In this document: positions 9,406 through 42,994 of the stretch, piece after piece
Layout of the letters: every line of letters begins with the position of its first letter
Numbering within the stretch: the first letter of the stretch is position 1
Source of the DNA: a virus
Virus record (IMG/VR): IMGVR_UViG_3300037156_000148
Coordinates: 5,687-69,686 of that record
Length of the DNA: 64,000 nucleotides
Strand: one strand, 5' to 3'
Program-made: the position numbers and the translations under genes
The notes under the pieces: generated by a model
Database searches by the model: none
What the model saw: only the letters and a program-made list of their open reading frames with translations
Told to the model about the DNA's origin: nothing

Positions 9406-9410
9406 ATCAA

Positions 9411-12106: not shown

Positions 12107-12110
12107 TATT

Positions 12111-13687: not shown

Positions 13688-13691
13688 GGTT

Positions 13692-15930: not shown

Positions 15931-15950
15931 AATAAAAAATCGGAATATCA

Positions 15951-16302: not shown

Positions 16303-16333
16303 TTTGGAAGTGTCAAAAATGTGCTTACTTTTG
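16303..16333 (+). promoter_or_regulatory. Bacteroidota housekeeping-sigma promoter of the rightward early operon
   Basis: TTTG N19 TACTTTTG; divergent TTTG..TAACTTTG on the minus strand at ~16235-16265. Confidence 0.65.
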
Positions 16334-16352
16334 TGTCGTTAAATAATAAACA

Positions 16353-16590
16353 AATGACAAGAATAGAATCAATAGAATACCAAAAAAAAATAAAATCACT
16401 CTGTAAAGAGTTCGGGAAATATGGCCATGAGCGCGTTGATGGTGGCTATTCTAACTACCATATAGAAAGTGTATTAAAAATTTCTGTCCCCAACGAATTG
16501 AAGTTAATAGGCATCCTCAAATACTTTCAAGGCTTAAAATCTGCGAAGGATGCTGAGATCGAAAAAGCCAAGTCAGAATTAACTAAGTAA
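16353..16590 (+). CDS. Hypothetical early protein (possible regulator)
   Basis: First ORF after the promoter, likely start MTRIESIEY. Confidence 0.5.
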
Positions 16591-16617
16591 CAATTTCACA
16601 ATCATAAATCAACAAAA

Positions 16618-16833
16618 ATGGACAACTCAGCATTGGTATCAACACCAAAACCCAAAAAGACGCGTGAGCGCAAACAGACAGGTAGCTATATCGGAGGATT
16701 AGCTACTAAATTATCACCGGTGCAGGATGAATATCTGAAATCGGTGCTTAAAGATCATTTCGGGACTGCTGATGTCACAGGACTATCAGTTTTCGAGAAA
16801 GAGATATTCGCAGGGATTGCGGCTATTCTCTAA
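16618..16833 (+). CDS. Hypothetical phage protein
   Basis: ORF with A-rich Bacteroidota-type translation start context. Confidence 0.55.
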   Translation: MDNSALVSTPKPKKTRERKQTGSYIGGLATKLSPVQDEYLKSVLKDHFGTADVTGLSVFEKEIFAGIAAIL

Positions 16834-17034
16834 AAATATTGATTGCGATAAGCAATTGTGGATGTGAGAAGTGTATGGCATACAGTTGGTTCAAGGCCGA
16901 CCTCACAGCATATCCCCGTTCTTAGTAAAGTAAGAGAAATGTCCGAGACAGTAACCGCTTCGTTCTCGCATGACGAAAGACAGATTTGAGAGGGTGAAAG
17001 TCCCTCCACTTTTTAAAGGCTAAAAAACAAAAAG

Positions 17035-17304
17035 ATGATAAAGTATAAGACAGGTAGTTTGTGGAGCAGCGGCATTGAACAAGTCGAGGTTGTCAGAGAA
17101 ACAGAATCGAGTGTGTTTGTTATGTATGGGACTAAGGAACGTAGGGAATCAAAGCGTACCGATTATCATAATTTCCACGATACATATGAAAATGCTATCC
17201 AGTGGTATATTGAAGGGGCGATAAAAGAAATTCATTCCGCCAAATCTAGGCTAGAAAGTGCTGAAAAGATCCTATCAGAAATCAAGGCTAAATATTCAAT
17301 CTAA
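17035..17304 (+). CDS. Hypothetical phage protein
   Basis: IEQVEVVRETESSVFV pattern common in small phage proteins. Confidence 0.6.
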   Translation: MIKYKTGSLWSSGIEQVEVVRETESSVFVMYGTKERRESKRTDYHNFHDTYENAIQWYIEGAIKEIHSAKSRLESAEKILSEIKAKYSI

Positions 17305-17313
17305 ACAATAAAT

Positions 17314-18318
17314 ATGAGAAAGATCAAAGGATTTAAAGGATTCGACAAAGACCTGAAATGCAAAGATGTCCAATTTGAAGTGGGCAAAGAATTTTCAATA
17401 CCCGACGAAATGCCTATCAAAATATGCGCATCGGGATTCCACCTCTGCAAAAATCCACTTGATATTTTCCGATATTATAAAGCGGGTAGTAGCAGATTTG
17501 CAGAGGTCGAAGGTGACGGCGATGAAAAAATACATGAAGATGACAGTAAAATAGCCGTTAGGCGCATATTTATCAAGGCTGAAATCAAAATTGATGACAT
17601 AATCAAAGGCGGTATTAAGTTCATTTTTGAGAAAATAAAAGAGATAAAGCCCGAACAATATGCATCAGGTAACTCTTCGACAGGCGCGGCATCAGGTAAC
17701 TATTCGACAGGCGCGGCATCAGGTAACTCTTCGACAGGCGCGGCATCAGGTTACTCTTCGACAGGCGCGGCATCAGGTAACTATTCGACAGGCGCGGCAT
17801 CAGGTTACTATTCGACAGGCGCGGCATCAGGTAACTCTTCGACAGGCGCGGCATCAGGTAACTATTCGACAGGCGCGGCATCAGGTGAATCTTCGACAGG
17901 CGCGGCATCAGGTAACTCTTCGACAGGCGCGGCATCAGGTTACTCTTCGACAGGCGCGGCATCAGGTGAATCTTCGACAGGCGCGGCATCAGGTTACTAT
18001 TCGACAGGCGCGGCATCAGGTGAATCTTCGACAGGCGCGGCATCAGGTAACTCTTCGACAGGCGCGGCATCAGGTTACTCTTCGACAGGCGCGGCATCAG
18101 GTAACTATTCGACAGCAATCGTAACAGGCAAAGATTCTATTGCGGTGGCTAATGGCAAAGACTCAAAAGCAAAGGGGGCTATCGGTTGCTATTTGGTTTT
18201 GAGTGAATATAAAGACGGAAATCTAATAGACGTCAAATGCAAAAAAGTGGACGGCAAAAAGATTAAGGCTGATACTTTTTACACATTGCAGGACGGCAAA
18301 TTTGTAGTTGTTAAATAA
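17314..18318 (+). CDS. DUF7666-like phage protein with AASGxxSTG repeats
   Basis: KGFDKDLKC..QFEVGK..CASGFHLC..PLDIFRYY N-domain; C-terminal VDGKKIKADTFYTL. Confidence 0.85.
   Translation: MRKIKGFKGFDKDLKCKDVQFEVGKEFSIPDEMPIKICASGFHLCKNPLDIFRYYKAGSSRFAEVEGDGDEKIHEDDSKIAVRRIFIKAEIKIDDIIKGGIKFIFEKIKEIKPEQYASGNSSTGAASGNYSTGAASGNSSTGAASGYSSTGAASGNYSTGAASGYYSTGAASGNSSTGAASGNYSTGAASGESSTGAASGNSSTGAASGYSSTGAASGESSTGAASGYYSTGAASGESSTGAASGNSSTGAASGYSSTGAASGNYSTAIVTGKDSIAVANGKDSKAKGAIGCYLVLSEYKDGNLIDVKCKKVDGKKIKADTFYTLQDGKFVVVK
17662..18115 (+). repeat. 17 x 27-bp in-frame tandem repeat
   Basis: GCGGCATCAGGT-(AAC/TAC/GAA)-(TCT/TAT)-TCGACAGGC. Confidence 0.95.
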
Positions 18319-18355
18319 TAACAAGGGATAAAGAAATAATCAAAATAAAAATAAA

Positions 18356-20281
18356 ATGAACATCAAACTCAAAAACTTAACAGCAGTCAATTTCAAAGGC
18401 GGTAAATTTGACATCAATTTTTCATCTGTCACAAATATATCCGGTGCAAATGCGGTCGGTAAAACAAGGATAGCCGATGCCTTCTTTTGGCTGATGTGGG
18501 GCAAAAATAGTGAAGATGCAAAAGACTTCTCTATAAAAGACAGCGTGAATCTGACTAACAACAAATCAGATCATGAGGTATTCGGCACCTTCGATATTGA
18601 CGGCAAAGAAGTTAGTCTTAAAAAAGTGTACAAAGAGAAATGGACAAAAAAACGCGGTGAGCCTGAGCCTGAATTTACAGGCCATGAGACGGTTTATTTT
18701 TTCAATGATGTGCCATGTTCACAATCTGAATATACATCAAAGGTAAGCGACATTTTGCCCGAATCCATAGCCAAACTTATCACCAATCCATTTGCATTTA
18801 ATAGCCTGAAATGGGAGCAACGCAGGGAGGCATTAGTAAAGATAGCCGGGAATGTAAATGATAGCGATATCGCATCTGGGAGCAAAGAATTTACCGATCT
18901 GCTATTGATGTTTAATGACAAATCTCTATCCGATCTCAAAAAAGAAATCGGGGCCAAGAAAAAGAAAATACGCGAAACCCTGGATTTCATCCCTTCGCGA
19001 ATTGACGAATCTGAAAGGGGCAAGCCAGAAACGCAGGACTTCGATGTGATTGAGAAATCTATCGAGTTTAAGCAAAAAAATATAGCTAAGATAGACGAGG
19101 CCAGTGAAGATTTAGCTAGGACGCATCGGGATGCATCGCAGATTGTAATGGTAAAAAACAATGAGCTGAATGCGCTAAAGGTGAGACTGTCCAATCTCGA
19201 AAACGAAGCATCCCAGGCGCAAGCAAAAGAACTACGCGAGATAAAAAATAAAATCAGTCAGTTAGAGCAAGAGCAATCTGACTGCAATCGCAACTTAAAT
19301 GACAAAACACAGAGGATAGCTAATCATAACAGCAGAATAGCTAATATCGAAAAGGAAACAAAAGAACTGCGGATAAAAGTAGCGGCAATAGATGCTGAGG
19401 TTGCACCTGAAATGAATGCAGATGAGACTATATGCCCTTCGTGTTTACAGCCGTTGCATGCCGATAAAATAGAAAATATCAAGTCTACTTTCCAACTAAA
19501 TTTCAATAAAAATAAACTATCTCGCAAAAATGCCACAGCCCTACAGGGGAAAGCAAATAATGAGATTGTGAAAACCCTACAATCGGAGATTTCTGAGTAT
19601 GAAGGCAATCTATCTGAATATAATAATAGGAGATATGCTATAGATAAAGAGATTGAACAATTACATTTTGAGTACAAGGCAAAAGAATTTTTAGAAGATA
19701 AGCCTGTCAGCCTTGAAGTTATTGGACTGCGCGAGAAAATAGGGACATTTGTCATCCCCACATCACCCATAATAGACTATACTGAATTTAAAGAACGCCG
19801 GACACAGTTATCAAATGAAGTATCAGACCTGAAAAGCAAGCTATCAGCTAAAGATCAAATCACAAAAGCCGACCAAAGAATAAATGAACTACAAAATAAT
19901 GAACGCAAATTGTCTCAGGAAATAGCAGATTTGGAGAGGACTGAATTTACTATTGATGCTTTCACTAAGGCAAAAATGGACTTAGTTGAAACTAGGGTGA
20001 ATGCAATGTTTAAGTTAGTAAAATTCAGAATGTTTGAAGCTCAAATAAACGGCGGGACGACTGAGGCGTGTACATGCTTAGTAAATGGGGTCCCTTTCTC
20101 TGATGCAAACAACGCAGGTAAGATAAATGCGGGGCTTGACATCATCAACACACTGCAATCGTATTACAACATATTTGCTCCTGTGTGGGTGGATAATTCG
20201 GAGGCTGTTAATGAAGTATATCCTATCAATTCACAACTTATAAAACTGGTAGTTACTACCGGCAAACTCACAATTTCTTAA
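18356..20281 (+). CDS. SMC/Rad50-like ATPase of the recombination module
   Basis: Walker A GANAVGKT, long coiled coil, CPSC hook, VWVDNSEAV. Confidence 0.85.
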   Translation: MNIKLKNLTAVNFKGGKFDINFSSVTNISGANAVGKTRIADAFFWLMWGKNSEDAKDFSIKDSVNLTNNKSDHEVFGTFDIDGKEVSLKKVYKEKWTKKRGEPEPEFTGHETVYFFNDVPCSQSEYTSKVSDILPESIAKLITNPFAFNSLKWEQRREALVKIAGNVNDSDIASGSKEFTDLLLMFNDKSLSDLKKEIGAKKKKIRETLDFIPSRIDESERGKPETQDFDVIEKSIEFKQKNIAKIDEASEDLARTHRDASQIVMVKNNELNALKVRLSNLENEASQAQAKELREIKNKISQLEQEQSDCNRNLNDKTQRIANHNSRIANIEKETKELRIKVAAIDAEVAPEMNADETICPSCLQPLHADKIENIKSTFQLNFNKNKLSRKNATALQGKANNEIVKTLQSEISEYEGNLSEYNNRRYAIDKEIEQLHFEYKAKEFLEDKPVSLEVIGLREKIGTFVIPTSPIIDYTEFKERRTQLSNEVSDLKSKLSAKDQITKADQRINELQNNERKLSQEIADLERTEFTIDAFTKAKMDLVETRVNAMFKLVKFRMFEAQINGGTTEACTCLVNGVPFSDANNAGKINAGLDIINTLQSYYNIFAPVWVDNSEAVNEVYPINSQLIKLVVTTGKLTIS

Positions 20282-27824: not shown

Positions 27825-28223
27825 TCATATTTTACTGAGTCGCTTGGAATACCCAGTTAGGTACTTCCTCTCGATCGGCAGTAGTTGGCTATTGTAGCAT
27901 GTATTTTTGGCGATATTAATTTTGCATAAACTTTGCCACGCAGGATGGTCAGGATAGTATCCGTATTGGTAGTTTGCATTTTCTCTTACTGCTATGCAGA
28001 TTGTCGTATTTCCCCTTTCGCTGACCTCATACGGGGCAGTTACTGATACGGTTTGCAGGCAGATTGCCGGGCCGGTTGTGATCTCATTATATATTGTGGC
28101 AGCTTGTGCCTTGTGGATTGCTGTATAGCCAGGCGGTTCGCCAGTGCTAACAGAACCGAAACAGTTTGTGGACGCTAGTGATAGCGCGACTACAAACAAC
28201 AGTCCGAGCAGTGTTCTTTTCAT
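27825..28223 (-). CDS. Secreted hypothetical protein (moron-like)
   Basis: Signal peptide MKRTLLGLLFVVALSLA..; followed by GCATCCC..GGGATGC hairpin. Confidence 0.6.
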   Translation of the reverse strand: MKRTLLGLLFVVALSLASTNCFGSVSTGEPPGYTAIHKAQAATIYNEITTGPAICLQTVSVTAPYEVSERGNTTICIAVRENANYQYGYYPDHPAWQSLCKINIAKNTCYNSQLLPIERKYLTGYSKRLSKI

Positions 28224-29397: not shown

Positions 29398-29560
29398 TTT
29401 ATTACAGTTGATTTATGCAAGTGCATGATGCTATTTGATCTTATACATTGTAGCCTGACTTTTGTTTCAAGTACTTCTAACACTATCCAACTTGCGCCAC
29501 TGTTCGGGATGCCTACGATTTCACCCTTGGTTACGTCATTCAATGTGCGGATTGGTTTGG

Positions 29561-30217
29561 TCATGAGGCTAGATTGAAATCGGAGAAGTCAATTAAAGTA
29601 TAGCTGATATTGCCCTGTATCTTCTTTAAGATAGGCATTACATCATTAAGGTATATTTCATCCATAACCTGACAGCCTGCGCTTAGATTATCCACCGTTG
29701 AGCCATTGTCACCCCGCCAAGAATGAAAGTTGATGCCGAACATTCCAGTGACAGACGAGAACTTATCAATAGTACCCCCCTCTGTTTTATCGCGATATAT
29801 TTTACATGGTGAAACTTGCATCAAATATTGATCCCCACTCCACCCACCTGCGGGCCGGTATGACCACATATCTTTATATTGTCCGGGCGCAAGACAAGCA
29901 CACCCGCCGACCTGTGCTACATAGGCATCATTCTTTTGGTAAGATGAACCTGGTTTGGTTGACATGGGGAAAATAAATGTATCACCTGTCCCTGTGAATA
30001 TTGCGCCCCAATCGGTGAACTGATTTGTATAATCATCCGACATTCTGATTCCTACTAAATTGGCAAAGTCATACCCTTTGGCATTGAATACAGATGAAAG
30101 TTTATCGTGAAAGATTTTAAGTGCAGCTTGTGAAGCACTCCCTAAGTCACCATCTACGGTAAGTCCCGCCTTGATAAGCTCATTCAGACCCGCTTGTGTT
30201 GATTCCTGTATTGTCAT
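29561..30217 (-). CDS. Putative endolysin: PG-binding N-terminus + YkuD/L,D-transpeptidase-like His/Cys domain
   Basis: LTVDGDLGSASQAAL; GINFH..SAGCQV; lies downstream of holin-like genes. Confidence 0.7.
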   Translation of the reverse strand: MTIQESTQAGLNELIKAGLTVDGDLGSASQAALKIFHDKLSSVFNAKGYDFANLVGIRMSDDYTNQFTDWGAIFTGTGDTFIFPMSTKPGSSYQKNDAYVAQVGGCACLAPGQYKDMWSYRPAGGWSGDQYLMQVSPCKIYRDKTEGGTIDKFSSVTGMFGINFHSWRGDNGSTVDNLSAGCQVMDEIYLNDVMPILKKIQGNISYTLIDFSDFNLAS

Positions 30218-30260
30218 ATTCCAAATGTAAGCATTATCCCGAATAGACCAAATTTATTTT

Positions 30261-30539
30261 TTAGTCCCCATCGTAGTCCTGCGCATAATTAGGATATAGC
30301 TTTGTATGCAAATTGACTATCAACTTATCCTGCCTGTGCTCACTGGTTTCCAGCTCCGTAGTCCTATGTTCGACCCTTTCCATAAAGTCGCATACCTTTT
30401 GATCGGATTTTGCCCGTTCAATACTTGTAGATAGTTGCGCTGAAAGTAGTCCTATGATGACAGTCAGCAATGTGGCGAATATAACCGTTTCGGCATTCTC
30501 TAAAAACTTTCTCCAAGCTGATTTTACGATAGGTGGCAT
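30261..30539 (-). CDS. Single-TM coiled-coil protein (holin/antiholin-like)
   Basis: TM VIFATLLTVIIGLLSA then coiled coil. Confidence 0.5.
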   Translation of the reverse strand: MPPIVKSAWRKFLENAETVIFATLLTVIIGLLSAQLSTSIERAKSDQKVCDFMERVEHRTTELETSEHRQDKLIVNLHTKLYPNYAQDYDGD

Positions 30540-30841
30540 TATGGTTTTGTTTCCGTTTGTTGATGTGGAGCAATAGAATCAAGGTCCATCGGTACATCAT
30601 TTGTTTTAGCTGTACCTGATGCTTTTTCGATAGTCTTTAAAAATCCTGATGTGGTAGTCAGGACGGTCAGGATATACACCCGCAAATCGTTAGGGATCCA
30701 TCCTGTTGGCATTGGTGCGAGCAATAGACCTATGATAGTGGACATAAAAATAAAGCCGTTAGCAATCGTTTTAAGCTGCTGTGGTGAAGGCTCTGATAAT
30801 TGAGAAACCCCTATTTTTACATTGCCTATTTGTAATGCCAT
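30539..30841 (-). CDS. Putative holin
   Basis: Two hydrophobic helices, in the lysis cassette. Confidence 0.55.
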   Translation of the reverse strand: MALQIGNVKIGVSQLSEPSPQQLKTIANGFIFMSTIIGLLLAPMPTGWIPNDLRVYILTVLTTTSGFLKTIEKASGTAKTNDVPMDLDSIAPHQQTETKP

Positions 30842-30851
30842 GATTCAGTTT

Positions 30852-32804
30852 TTAATACCAAGTTGATGTTCCGCTGTCGTATGTCAATATCTCCACACTG
30901 CCAATTATCGGACTGACTAATCCGCCTAATACTGTACCTCCTCCGTAAGTCACATTACTTACTGCTTGGTCAAATTTTATTTCAACCCTATCATTATCCG
31001 CAGGTGTGGCTGGTAAATTTATAGTGAGTGCTAAAATGGGTGCAGCGGGATTGACTATGTTCATTTGATTGTCAATCGCTGTAATGGTTGCTCCTGTAGT
31101 GGGAGTGAATATCGTATGAGGTAAATTTGGCACTTTCTGCCATGTCAGATTATTACTTGCATCAGCAACAGCTATCTGTCCTAATGTGGGTGAGGTTTTT
31201 GGCAGGTTGTAATAAGCAGGACCGATAAATTCAAATCTGATGTTATTTGTCTTCCAATTTCCTGTGATACCTACTGTTGAATCACTTGATCCACCTAAAT
31301 CTGAACTTAATATTGCAAAACCACTATCAGCAAAACCACATCCTACGACTGTATTACAATTATGAATGGAATCATTAATAAAAACAGCTCCCATTCCGCC
31401 AATGCCATTAGATGCAAATATAGCAGCTTGATCAAATGTATATAGACTTCCTACCACATTCAGCGCACCGTCACTAGCTCCTATCATATTAGGAGGATAT
31501 GATGTCCCTGCATTGCCAGTTAATCCCCATCCACCTGATCCACCTGATGTATTCACATTGCCATCTGGAGTAGCATGAACTCCATCGACGGTGAGAACCC
31601 TCACTCCGCTACCCATTGGAATGGTGTCTTTATAATTGCCTGTAAGGTATTTGGGGTAGTAAGTAGTATAGTCATTGGAATTAGTGTCCACATAAGCTAA
31701 AAAAGCACCATCTACATTTGCGACCATTGCCAATCGAGAGTTAAATACACCGCTAACAAAAGATTGAACACTGACCGCTGACCCTATTAACCCTGCTGTT
31801 GTAGCTCCATTTGCATCTAATATATTTAAACTATGCCTCTCTGCATTGAGTGAAAAAAACTGATAGCCATCCTGAAAAGCTCCGAATGAAAAGTCAGAAG
31901 TATCTTGGTGAAAAAATGATCCTATCCCACTGCCACCATTAAATATAGCCCTTTGCCAATTTACTGAATCTGCATTATTTATGTGAACATAATTGGGAGA
32001 GGACAAGGCTATTTTAGCAAAGGCATTTTGTGCGCCAATTTGGAAATAGCTTTGTCTTGACCGATCCCTGTTAATGCCATATAGTAGTCCCACTGCACTA
32101 TCCCCGAAATCAACCGGCTCTGCATCAAGGGCTAATTGAATTCCGTATGAGGAGTTGCTAAACCCCGCAATACTATCAGCTCCCGGAGCAGATAAATCTG
32201 GTTTATACCACATATTTATCCCCACCTTTTTTCTACCTGTTGAGTCAAATCTATTTTGAATCAAAGTTCCCTCATTCCCTTTCACAAAAAAGAGGTTAGT
32301 CCATCCATTAAAGATCAGCTTACTAGAAGTATCTACCGTTACCGTCCTATTAGTGTTGGCAGGGATCGTGCCGTCTGAGTTGTAGATGTTGGCTGTATGG
32401 ATACGAGCAATGGAATCTAGTTCGTATTTGGTAGCTATGTGACCGCCGAATAATGTGTCTGTGTATGGGATAAGGTCGCCCCAGGCTAAAGTATCTCCGA
32501 AGATCATAGTATTTAGCTTTCTGAATCCACTATCCATATTTGGAGCGAGGATGTATATGCTATTAAGATACCATACTGCTACGATAGAGTTGTTATAGAC
32601 ACTCGATACGGTCAGTTGTGGATACCATTGATTTACATTGTACGATACCCGCAGAGAATTTTTCGGCAAACTCAGCGAATCCGCATGGGTGCTATCTACA
32701 AATAAAACATAATTCCCCGCATCGTAGACGTTATACACATAATGGGGCTGTGCCTTTACTATTGAGCATATACAGACCAAAATTATGATTAGTGATTTTC
32801 TCAT
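30852..32804 (-). CDS. Signal-peptide-bearing tail-fibre/adhesin-like protein
   Basis: MRKSLIIILVCICSIVKA|Q; WGLTGNAGT, GQIAVADASNNLTW, TINLPATPADNDRVEI. Confidence 0.7.
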   Translation of the reverse strand: MRKSLIIILVCICSIVKAQPHYVYNVYDAGNYVLFVDSTHADSLSLPKNSLRVSYNVNQWYPQLTVSSVYNNSIVAVWYLNSIYILAPNMDSGFRKLNTMIFGDTLAWGDLIPYTDTLFGGHIATKYELDSIARIHTANIYNSDGTIPANTNRTVTVDTSSKLIFNGWTNLFFVKGNEGTLIQNRFDSTGRKKVGINMWYKPDLSAPGADSIAGFSNSSYGIQLALDAEPVDFGDSAVGLLYGINRDRSRQSYFQIGAQNAFAKIALSSPNYVHINNADSVNWQRAIFNGGSGIGSFFHQDTSDFSFGAFQDGYQFFSLNAERHSLNILDANGATTAGLIGSAVSVQSFVSGVFNSRLAMVANVDGAFLAYVDTNSNDYTTYYPKYLTGNYKDTIPMGSGVRVLTVDGVHATPDGNVNTSGGSGGWGLTGNAGTSYPPNMIGASDGALNVVGSLYTFDQAAIFASNGIGGMGAVFINDSIHNCNTVVGCGFADSGFAILSSDLGGSSDSTVGITGNWKTNNIRFEFIGPAYYNLPKTSPTLGQIAVADASNNLTWQKVPNLPHTIFTPTTGATITAIDNQMNIVNPAAPILALTINLPATPADNDRVEIKFDQAVSNVTYGGGTVLGGLVSPIIGSVEILTYDSGTSTWY

Positions 32805-33862
32805 TATTGACCTATTACTATGACGTTAAAAATATACTGTGTGGCATCTGCTAAAGCCGTACCGCCTGATGTAAAAGCTATGCCTGTTGTTGCCTCTGCG
32901 GGAGTGATTAGATAAAATGCGGCCGAGGTAGAATTTACATTCCTTGATTGAATAAATGCCAATGGTATTGCTGGATATGACGATGTGAATGCTACCGTTA
33001 AGATGTTGGAAGAAGTACTGCACCCTGTCCCTGTGGTCAGATTTACCCTAAAACCTACTGCATTGCCCGTTATCGTAGCGACTGCCCCTGTACCTGCCCC
33101 TGCGCCAAATGAGGCGGTAGGGTTGATAGCCTGATTACTGAGGATGATGGATGGCTGATATGCGGCGAGTGCGTTCTGTACAAAATTATCATTGGATATT
33201 TTAGTCGTGTTATCTCCAAGTGATTGTGTTGGTGCTGTGGGTGCGCCTGTAAGTGCAGGACTAGCTAAAGGCGCGAGAAGTGCCCTTGCGGTTGTGAGTA
33301 AGGCAGTTGTAACTACCTCTGTCGTATTGGTAGATAAAAGCAATGTAGGGGCGCGTAGCTTTGTAAAATTACCACTATTCGTCCCCTCCAATGTATCTAC
33401 TGTATTGGTAAGCTGTGACTGCGATACGTAATTCAGCAAAGTATCAGACAAGTCAGTATTGTCAGGATAGTTAGCGAGTATGCTTGCTATGTTCGCTGGG
33501 GGTGAAGTGACTGTCCATGCAGTCCCATTATAGGTGCAGGTTACAAATAAATTGACCACTCCGCTACATATCTTTGTGTATTCCTGACTGAGTATAAAAA
33601 TGCTGTGCCCGTTCGGATGGATATTAGTACCGTTGAACCAAATGGTAAACTGTGAGCCGATCAAAGGTGTACCGCTAAAGATGATGGACATATCAGATGA
33701 TAGCGTGAGGGTATCTTTGGTAAGAAATACCTGTGTGGTACTACCCGCATAGATAGTCACCGAACCGCTTTGCAGGTGCAGATTGGCGGTGTTAGGTGTG
33801 CCTACTGCGAATGTGAGTAGTGCGCTTATGCTGAATAATATGCTAAGAATTATTTTTTTCAT
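32804..33862 (-). CDS. Signal-peptide-bearing tail-fibre-like protein
   Basis: Likely start MKKIILSILFSISALLTFA; fibre repeat APLASPALTGAPTAPTQSLGDNTTKIS. Confidence 0.72.
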   Translation of the reverse strand: MKKIILSILFSISALLTFAVGTPNTANLHLQSGSVTIYAGSTTQVFLTKDTLTLSSDMSIIFSGTPLIGSQFTIWFNGTNIHPNGHSIFILSQEYTKICSGVVNLFVTCTYNGTAWTVTSPPANIASILANYPDNTDLSDTLLNYVSQSQLTNTVDTLEGTNSGNFTKLRAPTLLLSTNTTEVVTTALLTTARALLAPLASPALTGAPTAPTQSLGDNTTKISNDNFVQNALAAYQPSIILSNQAINPTASFGAGAGTGAVATITGNAVGFRVNLTTGTGCSTSSNILTVAFTSSYPAIPLAFIQSRNVNSTSAAFYLITPAEATTGIAFTSGGTALADATQYIFNVIVIGQ

Positions 33863-33872
33863 TGTCTTAATT

Positions 33873-34595
33873 TTACCAAGTGGATCTAATTGACCGTCCC
33901 CATCCACTTCCTGATTTGGTGTAGATATAATTTGCGTCCTGTACAATCATTCCTACGCTACCATATGTGTCTGCGCTTCCTGATGGCGTGTGGGTAGGGC
34001 ATATGGGTGTCCATGAGCCTAGTCCATCTGATGCACATGTAAAGGCATATCCCGCCACCTGTGTGCCGTCTACGATTTGAACTTTCCCTGCATTTTTAAA
34101 AACTGAATCACTCGCGGATATTACCTTATATTTATCATTAACGATAATACCTGTGGAATTGAAAGCTCCATCTAAATCTCCCAAAGCACATTGTATATTT
34201 GACGAATCAGCAATTTCAGATACGGCATAAAAGAGTCTATTGCCAATAGAATCAAATGTTTCTACCCCTCTAAAGCTCCTATTTTTACCTACCGATAAAT
34301 ACGTTACCTTATTACTCTTTAAAAGCAATGTCTGATAATCCGTAGTCCCCACAAAGTTCACTGCTGAATTAGTCCCCGCATTGCCGTGTAGCTTCCAAAA
34401 TTGAGCGGTGTCTAATGGTGCTGTCCATATCCCATGACAAAAGCTATCTGATGTCAGATTATACCCGTTATGACAAGTACCGACATGGATATTGACGGGA
34501 CCGTAAAAGTTCATCGTGTCCCGAAAATTCCTTACTCCCTGCGCTTGGTCAGGTATAGAAAAGAACATCGCTAATATAAATATGATATTTCTCAT
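33873..34595 (-). CDS. Signal-peptide-bearing fibre-like protein
   Basis: MRNIIFILAMFFSIPDQA|Q; WKLHGNAGTNSAVNFVGTTD; QIVDGTQVAGYAFTCASDGLGSW; DANYIY..W..W C-terminus. Confidence 0.7.
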   Translation of the reverse strand: MRNIIFILAMFFSIPDQAQGVRNFRDTMNFYGPVNIHVGTCHNGYNLTSDSFCHGIWTAPLDTAQFWKLHGNAGTNSAVNFVGTTDYQTLLLKSNKVTYLSVGKNRSFRGVETFDSIGNRLFYAVSEIADSSNIQCALGDLDGAFNSTGIIVNDKYKVISASDSVFKNAGKVQIVDGTQVAGYAFTCASDGLGSWTPICPTHTPSGSADTYGSVGMIVQDANYIYTKSGSGWGRSIRSTW

Positions 34596-34596
34596 G

Positions 34597-35454
34597 TTAG
34601 TTTGGTATGATTGCTAATGATTGAGTACTTAAAACCGACCCGCCTACCCATGTGAAGGTGCCCGTTGAACTGACATATGTGTACCTTGTCGTAGGGAAGC
34701 AAAGCAAGCCGTCTATGTACACTGAGAACCTTGCATTTGGTATGTTCACCAAAGCAGCATTGACATAGGTCGAAGTATTGTTTCCTGTGCCGTATATAGG
34801 TGTAAATGGTATTGGTGATGTCCACGATAACTGAGTATATCCCGTATTACCATCTGATGTTAATACTTGTCCAACAGTTCCCTGTGTGGGTGGGAGGGAG
34901 TATAGTATGTCTAATAACCCATTGTCATTTACAAATGCGGCGACAACATTAGATACATTAAAATTATATAGTGATAACGCATTAGTCGCAACAGCCCCAT
35001 CACCTAAGCTATCGGTAACATAAAGTGTAGAATAGGTATCGTTCCAACTAAGTCCATGATTAGACGAGAATACGCCCCCTATACTGTATTGAATGTCCCC
35101 GCGTGTACCACTAGCCCTTGGTATCTTTTTAATGGTAGCAATAGTCTTGAATGTATCCGCGAATGTCGGAATGACCGAACCCGTATCAACAAACGGGATA
35201 TAGCTTCTCAAAGAACTTACAGTAGCCAATACCGATGTATCTAATGGTGCCCATGTGATCTTACCGAATGAATCTGACTGTGCAAAGTATCCATTATGCG
35301 CGCCTAGTGACATTATCACGCGCGCCCTGAATGTTGCCGTATCTTTTAAGAACACATTATTTGTAAATACCACAGGTTGCCTCAGTGTATCTACCCATTG
35401 CCCCTTTGCAATAAGTGAACTCAAAAATATCGCTATAAATAGTATCTTTTTCAT
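34597..35454 (-). CDS. Signal-peptide-bearing fibre-like protein
   Basis: MKKILFIAIFLSSLIAKG|Q; GDIQYS, LPPTQGTVGQVLTSDGNTG..LSW. Confidence 0.7.
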   Translation of the reverse strand: MKKILFIAIFLSSLIAKGQWVDTLRQPVVFTNNVFLKDTATFRARVIMSLGAHNGYFAQSDSFGKITWAPLDTSVLATVSSLRSYIPFVDTGSVIPTFADTFKTIATIKKIPRASGTRGDIQYSIGGVFSSNHGLSWNDTYSTLYVTDSLGDGAVATNALSLYNFNVSNVVAAFVNDNGLLDILYSLPPTQGTVGQVLTSDGNTGYTQLSWTSPIPFTPIYGTGNNTSTYVNAALVNIPNARFSVYIDGLLCFPTTRYTYVSSTGTFTWVGGSVLSTQSLAIIPN

Positions 35455-35455
35455 A

Positions 35456-36406
35456 TTAGTTTGGAATTATAAATATTGGTGTTCCGACATTCACAGCCCC
35501 TAATACCCATGTGATAGTGCCCGTTGACGAAACAAATGTCCATTCAGTACCGTAACCCACAGGCATCTTGTCCACCGCTACCCAGAAATTGTTAGGATTT
35601 ATACCTATCAAAGCGTTATTCTGATATGTCGTTGCACCCGTACCTACTGTATAGATAGGGGCAAATGTGCCTGATGAACCAGTGCCGAACATAGCTACCA
35701 ATCCCTCTATCAGACCTACTCCGCTTGTGGTAGTTGCTGCATTGAAGCTCATTTGAAAGTTCACGTCGATAGCGGGATTAAAAGCCAAGTCAAACGCAGG
35801 ATATTCGCTTTCTGTTTCGATTGTACCTCCATTGACCACACCGACCATGGTATCCAAAGATCCCGATATGTAGTATTTGACAATTACCCCTATTGTTACC
35901 GTAGTCGGATTTTTAAGTTGTACCAATATCTCCGCGATATACTCCTGTGTATTTACAGATTGCGCTGATATTCTCGCCTGAATATCATGCGGTATCAATG
36001 ACATAGATATATATCCACCCGTACCGCCGTTAATTGGCGCACCTCCCTGATTTGGTACTATCCCCGCCACAGTGATTTTGATGCTATCACCTGCATTGTT
36101 CAAAGTGAACGCAGGTATGACACGGAATACATAGTTAAAGCCTCCTGTGCCTGTCGTACCGTCCCATGCGTATGGAGGATCAAGGAATGGCACCCATAGC
36201 CCACCGAATCCGCTTGTGCCTGATGGCCCTTGTGCGCCTGTATTGCCTGTCGCTCCCTGACTACCCGCCGCCCCTGTCGGGCCTATTGGCCCCTGTGGGC
36301 CTGTCGGAATAGTAGCACCATCACCCAATTCTATTAGAGTGATGCAAGTCGCATTTATCGGGCTTATTTGCCCCCTGTTGCAGTTGTTATCCCATTGTCT
36401 TCTCAT
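35456..36406 (-). CDS. Collagen-like tail fibre protein
   Basis: About 10 Gly-X-Y triplets GPQGPIGPTGAAGSQGATGNTGAQGPSGTSG. Confidence 0.75.
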   Translation of the reverse strand: MRRQWDNNCNRGQISPINATCITLIELGDGATIPTGPQGPIGPTGAAGSQGATGNTGAQGPSGTSGFGGLWVPFLDPPYAWDGTTGTGGFNYVFRVIPAFTLNNAGDSIKITVAGIVPNQGGAPINGGTGGYISMSLIPHDIQARISAQSVNTQEYIAEILVQLKNPTTVTIGVIVKYYISGSLDTMVGVVNGGTIETESEYPAFDLAFNPAIDVNFQMSFNAATTTSGVGLIEGLVAMFGTGSSGTFAPIYTVGTGATTYQNNALIGINPNNFWVAVDKMPVGYGTEWTFVSSTGTITWVLGAVNVGTPIFIIPN

Positions 36407-36621
36407 TAGCAGTCACAGTATTTGGTTATTAAACAATCCAAATCGCAATCCGTTCTACATGACCTGACTTGCGCGAGTTCATAAAGGAGTTCTAAGCTTA
36501 TCAGCTTATCTTCCAAGTGATACGTAGGCTTACCCAAGCACTTAAAGTTCTTGATAGTGCAAAAGGTTTTACCCAAACACCTCTGTATGGTTTCACATTG
36601 ACTATCCATTGTGCCTATCAT
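36406..36621 (-). CDS. Small Cys-rich tail-associated protein
   Basis: 71 aa with 9 Cys, translationally coupled to the next gene. Confidence 0.55.
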   Translation of the reverse strand: MIGTMDSQCETIQRCLGKTFCTIKNFKCLGKPTYHLEDKLISLELLYELAQVRSCRTDCDLDCLITKYCDC

Positions 36622-37939
36622 TATCAGGTGTTTCCCCGCATTCAGGGCAATCTATCATGCACTTGTCAAAAAGTCGTTCTATGTAGCCATTTATGCAGTT
36701 AATATCTGTAGTAGAGGCTGCAATGATCCCATTCAGCTCTCGCCACTGGTTATATACTTCCTGTTTTTCTTTTAGATCACACCCATGCAAAGTGCTGATT
36801 ATCTTCTTTTCTAAGCATCTCCATGTATTTGTGTATAGCAACGTGTTAATAGTTTCCGTTGCTAACAGGCATTCCGATGAATAAGGCGTGGCGTACACGT
36901 TGAATACTATCTTATATATGCCATCAGGGATGCGAGAATACAATCCAAAGCCAAGATTCTGAGGCGTAATGATTGCCGTATTATTGGCAGCATTTGGCAC
37001 ATATCCGAGATCAAAAGCTACGGTATTGCCGTCCGGCGTTGTCACCACAAATTCAGTCCTTGATACATCGGCATATGCAGGGTTTGGTGTACCATAGCCA
37101 CCAAGATTATCCGTAGCATATCCAAAAGTTTGATCTACAAAGGTCAAAATCCTGCTATCCGGGTCTTGAAGGAATACTACGTTTGCCTTTAATCCGCTTG
37201 GCAGTACCGTTCCGCAGCATGGCATTACAAAAGGTATCTGTAATGGCGAGCAGGTAATGGCATTGTCAGTGACAATAGTATATTTTAACTGATAGGTCGT
37301 ATTGCCTGTAAATCCCGTCAGTGCGAAATTGGCTGCGGTCAGGCAGATAGAAGCAAAAGGAGCCGCCGTTGGTCTGTATGTAGTAGTGTATGGGCTTCCT
37401 AGTGTCGCACCCATGCTATCCAAGAGCGTGAAGGTGACTTGGATTATATTGATGATCGCAGGGAAGTTAGGTGGGCCATACCCGTTCGGATTGATGACCC
37501 CGACGCCTCCCGAAGTTACCCCTGTGACATCAGTGAAGTTCAAACATTGCCTATCACAGTCAAACATCAATAAGCCGTCTATTACCGCAGTTATACCCGC
37601 ACACGTCTGTTGCCCACAGTTCTCATTGGTAGCCGCTATTGAGCGCGCCACATCTGAGAAAAGTATCTGTGCTGACATGGTATCAGGCGTTGATTCCGAT
37701 ACGCAGTTTGTTGATATATTTAGATATGATAGCCCTGTTTCGTGATTTGTGTCGTATTCTGCCAACCAAAGGTATGCGGGCAGTACAGATTGTAACCAAA
37801 CTAAGATAAGGGGCGTATTCTGACGAGATAGAATAAAAGGAAGTGGTGGCGTATAAACAATGCCATTGACCGTGACAGAAACTAATGTGTCCCTGTTTTC
37901 GACATGTTCAATTGGAATAGTATAATTGTATAGAGCCAC
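36602..37939 (-). CDS. Tail hub/fibre-attachment-like protein with an internal duplication
   Basis: Two similar modules (FTDVTG..NPNGYGPPN / FVDQT..NLGGYGTPN), IPDGIYKI, Cys-rich C-terminus. Confidence 0.55.
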   Translation of the reverse strand: MALYNYTIPIEHVENRDTLVSVTVNGIVYTPPLPFILSRQNTPLILVWLQSVLPAYLWLAEYDTNHETGLSYLNISTNCVSESTPDTMSAQILFSDVARSIAATNENCGQQTCAGITAVIDGLLMFDCDRQCLNFTDVTGVTSGGVGVINPNGYGPPNFPAIINIIQVTFTLLDSMGATLGSPYTTTYRPTAAPFASICLTAANFALTGFTGNTTYQLKYTIVTDNAITCSPLQIPFVMPCCGTVLPSGLKANVVFLQDPDSRILTFVDQTFGYATDNLGGYGTPNPAYADVSRTEFVVTTPDGNTVAFDLGYVPNAANNTAIITPQNLGFGLYSRIPDGIYKIVFNVYATPYSSECLLATETINTLLYTNTWRCLEKKIISTLHGCDLKEKQEVYNQWRELNGIIAASTTDINCINGYIERLFDKCMIDCPECGETPDNDRHNG

Positions 37940-37999
37940 TTTGGGGTATTTTCTCTACACTATCTGACACTATCTTGCCACAAATATAATAAACTTACT

Positions 38000-40900
38000 T
38001 TAAAACCCTGCCGTCTTTTTTGCTATATCTATTGGGTAGTGTGGTATGCCTGCCGCTTCGGTCGTAAAGTTGATGAAATCCTTTATGGCTTTCTTTTGTT
38101 TTGATCCATCTGTAATAGCATGAAATCCATCAGCAAGTGTAGTCCCTCCGTCCGTTACAATCTCAAAAGGAGCATATGAAAAGTCCCTGCCATACACGCC
38201 TGACTTGTATTTTGAGTACACCAAATCAACCACTGGTGCGGCGGCGGGTATGTTATTGAACAGACTTTTTGTAAACTCACCCTGCCATTCATCTTCGGGC
38301 TTATGTAGAGCCAGGGTAGCGGCACTACCAAGTAGCGCAAGCCTGCCCGTTGCGATAGTAGCTGATAATGCAGCATTGGTCACAAATACGTTCATGGCCT
38401 GAGTAGCCATCTTATTCAGGTTTTCTCTTGAGGGATCAGAAATGTAGTCTATGACCCGTGAGTGAAAACCATTAAATGCCGCTATCTTCTGAGTGCCGAA
38501 TAAACTTAGTGATTTGGATAAAACGTCGTTCTGTGTAGCCAACATTGACCTGTGACCGTCATCTGAGCTATGCTGTGATTCCGTGATAGCCTGAGTGTAC
38601 AAGTCCCCTACGCGCTCCCTGAATTTTGGCATTGTCGCGCCATAGTCAAAAAGCCCTTCGTCATTTGCCATCATCTTGGCTGCCGTGTAATACATGGCTC
38701 CAATAGCCTTGTCCGGTGTTTGAACGTTCTTCAAAAGGTCATTTCTATTGATTTGAAACCTATCACTTCCGAATACCTTTTTAAGTCCCTTGTTCAATAC
38801 ATCAATAGACTTACTATCCGATGTCTGCATGAATCTTTGAAGCTCGCTACTGCCGTAAGTATTTCTGTATAGGGCGTAAGGTATGCGCTCATTCATTTCA
38901 TCATAAATGGCTACGTTCTTTTTGTCTTTGCCCCACCAATCGGTGAACATATCATAGTTAGCTATGTCTTTGCCCATACTACTGAAAATGACACTTTTGG
39001 CTCGGAATAGGTATTTTGCGGGAAGAGTATTTACAGCCAAAGGGATAGCTGTCATTTGTTCGGCTGATACAAAAGGGTTCATTCCTATCTTTGATAAGAT
39101 GAAATTTGCCATCATTCCTTTGCCTGTCTTACCTAGCACCCCTTCGCTTTGCGGGTTAAACACGTTTTTCTTATAGTCCACCCACCACTGCGTCTTATGC
39201 TCTAAGCCCAAATCCTTTATTAGTTGCTCGTTTGCCCTTAGAAAATTATCAACATTCCGCATAGGGATAGTCCATGCTGCATACTTAGAGTTGCCATCCC
39301 TGTAACTTTGCATGGTTTCATAGAAGTCCCCTGCACTCATTTTGACATTTTCGGATGGGGAATATGTTTTGTGAGAGGCTATATCGTTGATCCACTTGTT
39401 TCGGTTCGTCTTATCCATTATGATATTCTCGTCACCGGCCACCGTGTGCGGGTAATAGAATCCTTTCTCTTTCTTCTCGACTTTCACTTTTTGTAGGCCT
39501 TCCGGCAAGCCTGACTGATTTTCTTCTTCGCCACCGTCTTTTGCTACAACTGCCAATTCCCTGCCGTTCTCCAATTTAAAGACACGGTTTACAAAAGTTA
39601 GCAGATGGTTTGACCCTTTCACCCATGTATCTTTTATTTGGTCAAGGTGTGGCGCAAATTCAGCCTCCATTTCCTTGTGGTCATTATAAGAAATCAATAC
39701 CTCTTTAGCATCCCTTCCCTCTATTTGACGCTTAAAAACAAAGGTCATGCCCTGCTTTTCGGGAGCTATTATTTGTGAGGCTTCGCCTTTAGTCGGGTCT
39801 GTTTCCTGTATAGATGTACGCTCCGCTTGTTTAGCATCAGTATCACCTTTCCCATACCACATAGCCGCCGAATTGCCCCTTTGCCCCTGGGCGTATATGT
39901 CAAGCCTCTCCGATGTGGTCACGGGTACACCTGCGATAAGTCTTGTTTCCAGTTCTGTTATCTTAGCATTTGGATTAGACGCGGCACTTCCTTTTCTTAA
40001 CCAGTCCGATTCATACAGTGTTTTTACCGCCCTGTCAAATGAGTTCTTATATGTCGCCTCCCTGCCAGTTGACCCATCTGCCCCCGTCATGCCACTTACT
40101 ATCTTATTGAGAAGCCCCTCGTTCAACCCTGTGAAGTTTTTAGCCCATCCGTTAAGATGTTCGGTAAGCCCCAAAACAGATTTATCAAATTTGTCGTATA
40201 GTTTTAACAGTGACGGGTGATCGCCTATCTTTTCAAGTATGCGTTTACGGAAGGTGGAAATGTCGGCTCCGCTTGCTTTGACTTGATCTTTGGATATTTT
40301 TGTTTTTTCATCCAACAAAACATCATCTTTGACGGAATCCAAATAAGCCTTTTGATAATAATGCTCAATCATATTATCATACATCTTCCTAAACTCTTTT
40401 GAGTAAACAGGTTCTCCGTCTTCTTTGGTAGCTCTCATGTCAAGCCTACCCTCATTGACTATCTGACTAGCCATAGCCTCAATATCATTGGCAAACTTAT
40501 TGCTCTCCAATATTGCCTTTGCGGGTTTTAAGTCAAGTGTGAAGTTTTTATCATTAGGGTTGCCTTCACGCCGAGAAGATGTTGTTTCTATGATACTATC
40601 CAACTTGGTAGAGAGATAGCTTCTTATTGCTTCCCTAGGCGTTACATTGGGGTTATTTGCTTCAATAGCACTTTGTACAGCACCGCCTATTCCTTGTCTT
40701 AGTCCACGCTCCTGATTAAATCCCACTTGGAATATAGGTTCCGTAGATACCCCCTCTGAGTGAGGGATAAATTTATATAGGTCGTTTTGCGGTACTGTGC
40801 CGTTTACTTCAAATCCTGTCAGTGTGGTACTGCCTTCAATGTCTGCCGTCTGTTCGCGGGTAAGTTGATCGGCTGCCCCTTCCTGTGCCAATTTATTGTA

Positions 40901-41623: not shown

Positions 41624-41727
41624 TACCAATCTTCTGTTTCGTTTGTAATACTATGATCGGTATTTAAAATATCGTCATAGTTGTCATCCGCCGTTGGCAC
41701 TTCTATTTCACATTCATCATCATCCAT
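41623..41727 (-). CDS. 34-aa acidic peptide
   Basis: MDDDECEIEVPTADDNYDDILNTDHSITNETEDW; overlaps the ATP-grasp stop and the next start (TAATG). Confidence 0.6.
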   Translation of the reverse strand: MDDDECEIEVPTADDNYDDILNTDHSITNETEDW

Positions 41728-42994
41728 TGCTGAATAATTTAATGCCAAATTTAGTCAATTTATCCATCTCTTCCTGCGCCTTGCCCATAGTCTCTAAACT
41801 AATAACCAGTTGATGCGCCTCAATCTGTTCTGCATTTTTCTTCACATGCTCCAATGCTTCCTCCAAAGTATTGCCAAGTCCTATGACAGCCCCGATTACA
41901 TTTGTAGGGAAACTTTGTGGTGCGATATAGTATGTATCTTTTATTCTTACTGCATTCATCAACTTTACAAACTGCTTTATTTCGTCAGGGAAATAAACAG
42001 GCAGCCAATTATCCTGCGCCCACTCCGAATACATCATTATTTCTACTCCCCATTTAGCAGCCGGTATCGGATCAATAACTTTGCCTTCGCTACCGTACCA
42101 TATTATTTCAGCAAGGTTGCTATATAGTTCCTGACAAAGCTCTGTGGGGGGAGACGGACAGCGCATTGTGCCGTCTATCATGTATGCCTTTTTATCCTCT
42201 CCAACCCTTATTTCGGTTGAAAAAAATCCCCTGTACCCGTACCCCTTGAATGTGTCTGAAATCTTAGTGTTGAACTCCGTAACCTCTTTTGGGATGTCTT
42301 TATATTCGCGCATTTCCCCCACATATCCGAGGTCTTTAACCTCGATACCTACAACGGATTTAGACGGATATTTGCCGTCAATAGTATATCCATCGTAGCC
42401 GATTTCGACCTTGTTATCGAGCTTATGATCTACGATAAATTCAGTTATATATTTTAATGGCCCCATTTCATGCTCAATAGCATCCAGTTTGGGCTCTATC
42501 ATTTTATAGTTTGGAGAATTGAACGTTTCAAAGTGTCCGCGCCATTGCGATATTTTTACATAGACATCTTCGTTCTTTTTTAGGTACTCACGCAAGGCAT
42601 CCATACCCGTAACAACTTCATATTTACCAACAGGCAAGCCAAGTTTATTCATGTGCTTCTTCATGCGGTCACGGTCTATCTCCATATCTTCTCCCGTTCT
42701 ACTGCCCCATACCCGCTTACCGAGAGATTCAATGTGTTCCTGTAAGTCCCCAAAATACACACATGGGAATACAAAAATATCGACTTCATCAAAATGCTCC
42801 CAGATAGAATTTACGCGGGTGATATTAGGCATACCATATCCGATCATCCCTTTGTTCATCTTTGGATATGGTTCTTCCCATACTGTGTAGTATAGGACTT
42901 CTTTGAATGATTCGCCAAGTTTCGATGCCAGCTCTAAAAACATGCCATCATCTATGACCATGCAAACCTTATCTTTGATATTGTCCTTGGTCAT
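41720..42994 (-). CDS. PurD/GARS-like ATP-grasp ligase
   Basis: GKRVWGS..MEIDR..KKHM..LGLPV, VYVK, VEIGYDG, GYRGFFSTEIRV..YMIDGTMRCPSP, VIGLGNTLEEA follow the PurD fold order. Confidence 0.75.
   Translation of the reverse strand: MTKDNIKDKVCMVIDDGMFLELASKLGESFKEVLYYTVWEEPYPKMNKGMIGYGMPNITRVNSIWEHFDEVDIFVFPCVYFGDLQEHIESLGKRVWGSRTGEDMEIDRDRMKKHMNKLGLPVGKYEVVTGMDALREYLKKNEDVYVKISQWRGHFETFNSPNYKMIEPKLDAIEHEMGPLKYITEFIVDHKLDNKVEIGYDGYTIDGKYPSKSVVGIEVKDLGYVGEMREYKDIPKEVTEFNTKISDTFKGYGYRGFFSTEIRVGEDKKAYMIDGTMRCPSPPTELCQELYSNLAEIIWYGSEGKVIDPIPAAKWGVEIMMYSEWAQDNWLPVYFPDEIKQFVKLMNAVRIKDTYYIAPQSFPTNVIGAVIGLGNTLEEALEHVKKNAEQIEAHQLVISLETMGKAQEEMDKLTKFGIKLFSNG

Follow-up and report, generated by a model that had tools for sequence, protein, structure and literature searches.

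Four consecutive genes, P1 to P4, occupy positions 30,852 to 35,454 of a 64,000-nucleotide viral stretch (the window), which comprises bases 5687-69686 of the 69,686-base IMG/VR virus record IMGVR_UViG_3300037156_000148 (CheckV completeness 57%). The best explanation is that these genes encode modular trimeric host-recognition proteins of the tail-fibre or tailspike type from a Bacteroidota phage, each apparently made with a genuine Sec/signal-peptidase-I leader of the Bacteroidota "Q-rule" type. On balance, we consider it probable that these proteins mature in the periplasm and dock after lysis. According to this proposal, P1-P4 would be translocated to the periplasm late in infection, and removal of the leader would expose a Gln in three of the four, a residue that Bacteroidota hosts would cyclise to pyroglutamate. 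The proteins would fold and trimerise in the periplasm, probably being O-glycosylated by the host general system at D-(S/T)-(A/I/L/V/M/T), and would remain there for want of a lipobox or a recognised type IX secretion system (T9SS) domain. The products of the downstream holin-like and endolysin-like genes would then break the envelope, and only at that point would the fibres meet the cytoplasm-built particles and dock. The features of the four genes are as follows, with ↓ marking the predicted cleavage site and lengths given in amino acids (aa).

34597..35454, minus strand: P1, 285 aa, with leader residues 1-18 (AKG↓Q), N-module, body and C-terminal module
35401..35454, minus strand: segment encoding the P1 leader, 18 codons (heuristic call)
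34600..34806, minus strand: C-terminal module of P1, residues 217-285, a module common to collagen fibres
33873..34595, minus strand: P2, 240 aa, with leader (DQA↓Q), N-module and W.L.GNAGT motif
32804..33862, minus strand: P3, 352 aa counted from the ATG, with leader (TFA↓V), N-domain, tail-fibre repeat shaft and C-terminal domain
33026..33469, minus strand: P3 residues 132-279, the region matching tail-fibre PHROGs and PDB 9k09, which holds APLASPALTGAPTAPT
30852..32804, minus strand: P4, 650 aa, with leader (VKA↓Q), N-module (residues 1-130), middle part and C-terminal domain
30855..31124, minus strand: C-terminal domain of P4, residues 561-650, a 7-strand beta-sandwich

Leaders were called with our own hydropathy, charge and -3/-1 heuristics; to pass, an N-terminus had to combine a basic n-region with ten hydrophobic residues in unbroken succession as its core, followed by a -3/-1 site. 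This crude n-h-c test was positive for 6 of the 74 open reading frames (ORFs) of the window, 4 of the 6 being the adjacent P1-P4 genes, and a run of at least four adjacent leader-positive ORFs arose in 0.09% of random placements (P = 9e-4). By the same heuristic, all four N-termini fit the Sec/signal peptidase I anatomy, in which a basic n-region precedes an uninterrupted h-region of ~7-15 residues and positions -1 and -3 are occupied by small residues. Their h-regions measure 12-14 residues and are too short for a membrane anchor. A first-pass annotation, made from the letters alone, had described four co-oriented genes with these N-termini, three having Gln at +1. The ORFs are present where it placed them, all on the minus strand and tightly packed, and the N-termini read as it quoted them.

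The choice of start codons is also consistent with genuine leaders. The junction between the upstream collagen fibre gene and P1 and that between P1 and P2 both read TAA, 1 nt, ATG; P2 and P3 are separated as TAA, 10 nt, ATG; P3 and P4 overlap in TAATG; and P4 passes to the holin-like gene through TAA, 10 nt, ATG. Given such tight junctions, the leader-encoding start codons are the natural starts. For P3, the longest ORF begins at a TTG at 33946 and the database gene call P0162 begins 15 codons upstream, at a GTG; both full-length leader-bearing P3 homologues begin at Met-Lys-Lys.

The leader anatomy recurs in a related phage. It is conserved in all four genes at the equivalent place in L002, a 64-kb IMG/VR record. 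L002 shares the gene order of the window: an ATP-grasp gene comes first, followed by genes for proteins of 1192 and 443 aa, the collagen fibre gene and four leader-bearing genes, after which come a holin-like gene and then a Peptidase_M15 endolysin. Its leader-bearing proteins have 418, 362, 374 and 596 aa, and Gln occupies +1 in 4/4 of them, as it does in 3/4 in the window, where P3 has Val. The leader sequences themselves diverge between the window and L002 while the pattern is retained, and such drift around a fixed pattern is the behaviour expected of real signal peptides.

The Q-rule extends to the wider P4 family, for which counts were taken from the 150 best matches (101 with a leader, 37 with a Met start and no leader, and 12 fragments). 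Among the 138 full-length matches listed, a leader was therefore present in 101 and absent from 37. Of the 101 leader-bearing proteins, 88 have Gln after a -3/-1 site, compared with 8 of the 37 that lack a leader and with 85 of 1010 internal windows. Within 17 viral loci carrying the P4 C-terminal domain, 11 domain-bearing ORFs were flagged by the caller and the one in L017 has a leader by eye; the 12 distinct complete ORFs comprise 9 flagged, 1 with a leader by eye and 2 leaderless. The first-pass annotation had considered that homologues starting downstream, without the leader, would count against it. Leaderless homologues do exist, but their N-termini differ instead of starting downstream of a leader.

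A separate line of evidence comes from glycosylation sites. In Bacteroidota, O-glycosylation is described as confined to non-cytoplasmic proteins, in which the sequon is enriched (PMC12871550), and the general O-glycosylation system is likewise reported to act only on non-cytoplasmic proteins (PMC8550257). We counted the sequon D-(S/T)-(A/I/L/V/M/T) against expectations obtained from shuffles. Mature P1-P4 contain 22 sequons where 6.2 are expected, distributed as 12 vs 2.7 in P4, 4 vs 1.0 in P2, 3 vs 1.4 in P1 and 3 vs 1.2 in P3, the excess being individually significant for P4 and P2. The four leader-bearing proteins of L002 contain 24 sequons vs 6.6 expected, so that the enrichment across the eight leader-bearing proteins of both phages is ~3.5-fold. 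By comparison, sixteen leaderless proteins of the window contain 29 vs 26.4 expected, and five leaderless proteins of L002 contain 7 vs 6.5.

The P4 family provides a control among proteins of one kind, in which sequon enrichment tracks the leader: the observed-to-expected ratio reaches 2.10 in the 101 leader-bearing members, against 1.16 in the 37 leaderless members. Control motifs, of which there were five (reversed; Glu for Asp; Asn for Asp; a non-hydrophobic third residue; Ala/Gly for Ser/Thr), displayed no clear leader-specific excess, the largest gap being 1.36 vs 1.18 for D[AG][hydrophobic]. Over 15 loci, the ratio was 2.5 for the 38 leader-bearing ORFs of at least 150 aa (193 vs 77.2) and 1.26 for the remaining ORFs (n=122), a class that includes at least one leader-bearing protein missed by the caller. 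Sequon enrichment restricted to leader-bearing proteins supports real export. Like P1-P4, the known Bacteroidota O-glycosylation substrates are leader-bearing and sequon-enriched, and they are non-cytoplasmic, as P1-P4 probably are (PMC12871550). They differ in being host proteins, and that review never uses the word "phage". Export, the central claim of the first-pass annotation, is well supported in silico by the L002 leaders and by three independent signatures, namely the predominance of leaders in the P4 family, the Q-rule and the confinement of sequon excess to leader-bearing proteins, and we infer from this evidence that P1-P4 are exported, cleaved and glycosylated.

This evidence must be set against the view that the hydrophobic N-termini do not serve Sec export, the fibres being assembled in the cytoplasm with the segment acting as a buried baseplate anchor or being removed by a phage protease. 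According to textbooks, every established tailed-phage system assembles its particles in the cytoplasm, and leaderless homologues show that bodies of this kind work without export. Predictors can also mislead on phage proteins, since predicted signal peptides were described on phage capsid proteins, where they are likely cut by the prohead protease (Matrishin et al. 2023, PMC10367356). We find this view improbable in the present case. The four N-termini display full n-h-c anatomy, with h-regions of the length given above, small residues at -1/-3 and a phylum-specific Gln at +1, their sequences drift while the pattern is retained, and a leader-specific enrichment of sequons is hard to explain for proteins that never leave the cytoplasm.

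If P1-P4 are exported, the periplasm is their probable destination. A lipobox with Cys at +1 is absent from all four proteins, in which +1 is Q, Q, V and Q, and the Cys residues of P4 sit within the h-region, without a lipobox. Pfam and NCBIfam searches at E <= 0.1 gave no match on P1-P4, whether to T9SS C-terminal sorting domains (Por_Secre_tail, type A/type B) or to any other family. With neither a Cys at +1 nor a T9SS match, the simplest fate would be a soluble periplasmic pool, released by the downstream lysis genes. The same results bear on the adhesin, receptor-mask and decoy roles that the first-pass annotation offered as an option, and on superinfection exclusion, all of which would place P1-P4 on the infected-cell surface. 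Leader-bearing fibre-like surface proteins exist in bacteria, as exemplified by the MAT fibres of Bdellovibrio (PMC10769870), and a Chitinophagales metagenome-assembled genome (MAG) contains a chromosomal cluster of leader-bearing relatives. Nevertheless, we regard surface display as highly improbable, since the lipoprotein route is lacking, no T9SS domain or other family match points to an outer-membrane route, and the genes belong to a late operon just before lysis, with little time left for a protective role.

The fibre-like nature of the bodies, also asserted by the first-pass annotation, differs in strength among the four proteins. The motifs it quoted are all present, APLASPALTGAPTAPT in P3, GQVLTSDG...W in P1 and W.L.GNAGT in P2 and P4. 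For P3 a fibre-like nature is shown: it matches five tail-fibre PHROGs (best E 3.4e-9), some of the homologues that share its APLASP..TG.PTAPT region carry Collar, Mtd_N and Peptidase_S74 domains, and a four-sequence P3 profile matches PDB 9k09, "Tail fiber protein" (E 3.2e-8). Trimer prediction, one of the proposed checks, was carried out for P3 only and returned a predicted homotrimer for residues 125-352. Three copies scored 0.87 against 0.00 for the best control, a mark reached by 20/30 proteins solved as one-chain pairs and by 1/23 solved as single chains, although fibre trimers exist in the PDB and the pass may partly reflect likeness to them. The trimer runs agree in at least 92% of contacts, with a predicted local distance difference test (pLDDT) score of at least 89. 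An AlphaFold monomer model of P3, built on a 4-row alignment, was too poor for use (pLDDT 45.9).

For the remaining proteins, the C-terminal domain of P4 and the module that P1 shares with collagen fibres support a fibre nature for these two, and the case for P2 is weak. PHROGs matched nothing on P1, P2 or P4, and a PDB sequence search returned no match for P1 or P2 and chance-level rows for P4 (E >= 0.14). A word-based search of 5.8 billion proteins found no relative of P2 at all, its known likeness being limited to the N-module. Atlas look-ups were weak (0.86 for P4 and 0.90 for P2, in viral or Bacteroidota clusters, and 0.88 for PTL_trimer) and were not used as evidence.

Comparison of the two phages indicates that segments of P1-P4 have been exchanged in a modular, tail-fibre-like manner. 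P3 aligns over its full length with the 362-aa protein of L002 at 47% identity, and its closest full-length relative, P0163, is leader-bearing. Residues 1-130 of P4 share 51% identity with the first 137 residues of the 374-aa L002 protein, the remainder of which matches residues 76-276 of P1 at 32%. Residues 1-68 of P1 in turn match the 418-aa L002 protein at 42%, and residues 1-74 match residues 1-64 of P2 at 36%, revealing an N-module common to P1 and P2. The last 69 residues of P1 are 45% identical to the C-terminus of the adjoining leaderless collagen fibre and 70% identical to the C-termini of the collagen fibres P0002 and P0003. In L002, the fourth leader-bearing gene (11125-12915) encodes true collagen repeats (Pfam Collagen E 2.5e-10, above cut-off), a collagen-like protein with a leader, in contrast to the leaderless collagen fibre of the window.

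The last 90 residues of P4 form a strongly conserved domain that occupies the C-terminus in every case and finishes with WY. At E <= 1e-3, a search detected it in 551 cluster representatives, proteins of 141-1823 aa. Three of the 150 listed matches (P0040, P0074 and P0092) match the leader and N-module of P4 rather than this domain. A Pfam scan of 8 relatives detected GDSL esterase domains in 4 and a beta-helix in 1. Searches placed the domain at 17 loci in viral contigs vs 3 loci in 185,579 species (one genome each), the three non-viral loci being MAGs of Chitinophagales, "Bacteroidetes" and Bryobacterales; it is essentially phage-borne.

The domain is modelled as a seven-strand beta-sandwich (pLDDT 91.7), whose nearest folds appear to be phage spike and fibre domains, a resemblance that is suggestive and not strong. 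In Foldseek, the domain came closest to the C-terminal end of the tailspike from Acinetobacter phage Solidus (E 2e-3, 31% identity over 94 columns), with nothing at E <= 1e-3. Phage spike, fibre or baseplate chains fill the top six VIA rows at Z 9.1-7.3, the next row falling to Z 5.2; CBA120 TSP4 residues 75-173 lead these six (Z 9.1, root-mean-square deviation 3.5 A, 90 aligned), and Solidus gp83 residues 592-694 close them (Z 7.3). A role as T9SS sorting signal was considered for the domain and is held unlikely, there being no family match, an occurrence also on leaderless proteins and a fold like that of phage spikes, though a sorting domain of a new type is conceivable. A role in docking to a conserved phage partner was rejected, no co-occurring gene family having been found.

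One of the non-viral loci, L003, offers what looks like a non-phage context for the P4 family. In this Chitinophagales MAG contig, five or six consecutive leader-bearing ORFs (6940-19990) stand beside metabolic genes. One of them has the P4-type C-terminal domain, that ORF and its upstream neighbour begin like the P4 N-module, and the last, of 2192 aa, carries a PA14 domain.

The step from export to virion is the least certain part of the proposal, and docking of P1-P4 after lysis is suggested only by analogy with the cultured Cellulophaga phage phi18:3 (NC_021794.1; host Cellulophaga baltica). In this phage, gp085, gp086 and gp087 are consecutive proteins of 547-785 aa encoded just upstream of the lysis genes (L025 2892-8584), with leaders ending ...YS↓Q, ...SA↓Q and ...NA↓Q. 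The record notes label all three structural/tail "based on experimental MS/MS proteomics analysis", MS/MS denoting tandem mass spectrometry; the underlying study is reportedly that of Holmfeldt et al. from 2013. Of the fates offered by the first-pass annotation, joining the particle at lysis is better supported, through this analogy, than the surface roles weighed above.

Genome context points in the same direction. In siphovirus-like contigs, a leader-bearing protein is encoded where a tail fibre is usually found, beyond the tape-measure and distal tail genes. In L013 (7284-7739), L018 (1932-2378) and L021 (6392-6847), a gene of 148-151 aa stands immediately upstream of the one for the leader-bearing fibre. 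The product of the L013 gene resembles the N-terminal domain of tail spikes and fibres (PHROGs, E 1.3e-6 to 2.8e-4) and is a candidate that may act as virion-side adaptor for an exported fibre. The P4-type domain is present in a single copy per record in 9/9 domain-bearing viral records searched, 6 of which are 100% complete; the carrier ORF is leader-bearing in all eight of the nine records where it was inspected, and no leaderless twin of the domain occurs in the nine. A decoy role for the P4-type protein, mimicking a leaderless twin, was rejected on the ground that the domain is single-copy per record.

These observations also weigh on the possibility that P1-P4 are exported but never become virion parts, being soluble periplasmic proteins freed at lysis and acting alone. 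Such proteins could spare progeny from waste by blocking or destroying receptors on debris and on neighbouring cells, or could loosen polysaccharide. The evidence for export, from sequons and the Q-rule, is identical under this possibility, and the GDSL esterase and beta-helix domains of some relatives are typical of receptor-destroying enzymes. Sharing of the P1 C-terminal module with the leaderless collagen fibre would suit a competitor for the same ligand, the leaderless fibre candidates of the window (the collagen fibre and a 445-aa protein) could serve the virion, and no docking partner was found. We nonetheless hold a purely non-virion role to be unlikely. With the P4-type domain in single copy there is no virion twin to compete with in the nine viral records (six complete), and several siphovirus-like contigs have the leader-bearing protein at the usual tail-fibre position. 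Between the window and L002, N-modules are conserved and C-termini shuffled, the pattern of N-terminally anchored fibres, and annotation based on MS/MS places the analogous phi18:3 proteins in virions.

Several findings weigh against periplasmic maturation followed by docking. The phi18:3 proteins have no detectable homology to P1-P4, the sole match covering 38 residues (E 0.002), and co-purification with particles is not necessarily attachment. They are also sequon-depleted (1 vs ~3 expected in each), so glycosylation is not general. In two of three cultured Bacteroidota phages examined, Flavobacterium phage Fpv5 and Cellulophaga phage phi38:1, the tail genes are leaderless. No docking partner emerged from the comparison of loci, where, besides the domain gene, no family is common to more than 4 of 15. 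The sequon excess is not significant alone for P1 (P = 0.15) or P3 (P = 0.10), and four leaderless fibre-type neighbours exhibit a mild, non-significant excess of their own (8 vs 4.5). Homologues with the same bodies and no leader (P0164 for P3; the 37 of 138 full-length listed matches for P4) indicate that fibres can fold without export. The fold matches of the P4 domain are modest, given a Foldseek E of 2e-3 and a Z of ~9 just above the tool's stated background of 7-8.

A broader generalisation is that many Bacteroidota tailed phages, of several lineages, practise two-compartment assembly, in which heads and tails would be built in the cytoplasm and Sec-exported fibres and spikes bearing pyroglutamate and the host's own O-glycan would dock only at lysis. 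We advance it tentatively, and with more doubt than confidence. Among known systems, phi18:3 is the closest experimental precedent and the MAT fibres of Bdellovibrio are the closest architectural parallel. Like P1-P4, phi18:3 gp085-gp087 are consecutive proteins with a Bacteroidota-type leader and Gln, encoded by a tailed phage directly upstream of its lysis genes; they differ in the homology and sequon content noted above. The MAT fibres of Bdellovibrio bacteriovorus combine a leader, a conserved beta-rich N-domain of ~130 aa, a phage-like trimeric fibre and a variable tip (Caulton et al. 2024, PMC10769870). In similar fashion, P4, the 374-aa L002 protein, P0040, P0074 and P0092 keep an N-module of ~110 aa right after the leader. 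As described in that report, MATs are encoded on the predator chromosome and displayed on its own surface, whereas P1-P4 belong to a phage late operon, the comparison being one of architecture as given in text only.

Classical fibres and tailspikes (PDB 9k09; CBA120 TSP4; Solidus gp83) share with P1-P4 a modular, shuffled architecture and a gene position between tail and lysis genes; the P3 shaft is homologous to 9k09 and the P4 domain resembles their beta-sandwiches. They have no leader and are assembled in the cytoplasm, whereas P1-P4 all have one. In Porphyromonas gingivalis phages, five genes whose function is unknown and which bear Q-rule leaders were proposed as host-surface modifiers (Matrishin et al. 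2023, PMC10367356). These too are Bacteroidota phage genes in which predicted signal-peptidase-I cleavage exposes Gln, and the sections of that report at hand draw no link to tail fibres or glycosylation. A full-text literature search found no paper on Sec leaders on tailed-phage tail fibres or on host glycosylation of such fibres. To these systems the window adds an uninterrupted series of four leader-bearing genes whose synteny is conserved, and a C-terminal module common to a leaderless and a leader-bearing fibre. It further adds a widespread spike-type C-terminal domain, found mostly on leader-bearing proteins and once per genome, and a within-family control in which sequon enrichment follows the leader.

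Tailed-phage assembly is taught as purely cytoplasmic. If receptor-binding fibres did pass through the periplasm and receive host glycans there, a post-lysis assembly step would exist and the virion would leave with host-type sugars on its fibres. Virions infecting a major environmental and gut phylum might then carry host glycans, with consequences for resistance to proteases, immune recognition and host range. The receptor-binding proteins of these phages would escape any pipeline that drops leader-bearing genes as "not structural", to the detriment of host prediction and phage engineering.

The flanks of the cluster agree with the first-pass description, in which a collagen fibre gene stands upstream and holin and endolysin genes downstream. 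Other features of the window are listed below.

35456..36406, minus strand: leaderless collagen-repeat fibre, 316 aa, directly upstream of P1 (Pfam Collagen, PHROGs)
30539..30841, minus strand: holin-like ORF, 100 aa, with hydrophobic segments and no Pfam, NCBIfam or PHROG match
30261..30539, minus strand: ORF of 92 aa with one N-terminal hydrophobic segment resembling a membrane anchor, i-spanin-like by topology only
29561..30217, minus strand: endolysin-like ORF, 218 aa (PHROGs)
58971-60437: major-capsid gene (PHROGs)
61451-63712: portal gene (PHROGs)

The collagen-repeat fibre scores below the cut-off for Pfam Collagen (E 4.2e-4) and matches 17 PHROG families, tail fibre in most. Residues 1-31 of the holin-like ORF share 52% identity with the equivalently placed ORF of L002. 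The 218-aa ORF matches phrog_3000, of unknown function (E 5.2e-12), and more weakly phrog_33083, an endolysin (E 2.8e-5).

Against 50,697 GenBank phage records, no match was obtained by megablast of 29500-38000 or by tblastn of the capsid protein, P2, P3, P4, the 418-aa L002 protein and the 767-aa L012 protein. A related-locus search with the 1209-aa protein and with P4 returned nothing in viral contigs. Synteny with L002 extends to a 424-aa ATP-grasp-like gene upstream of the 1192-aa gene, at 41720-42994 in the window and 3-1232 in L002.

Outside the fibre cluster, the window holds a fifth leader-bearing ORF at 27825-28223 on the minus strand, Cys-rich, of 132 aa from a Met-Lys-Arg start and with no NCBIfam match. 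A minus-strand ORF at 36406-36621, flanked by the collagen fibre gene and the gene for the 445-aa protein, encodes 71 aa with 10 Cys and may represent a small metal-binding or disulfide-rich assembly factor.

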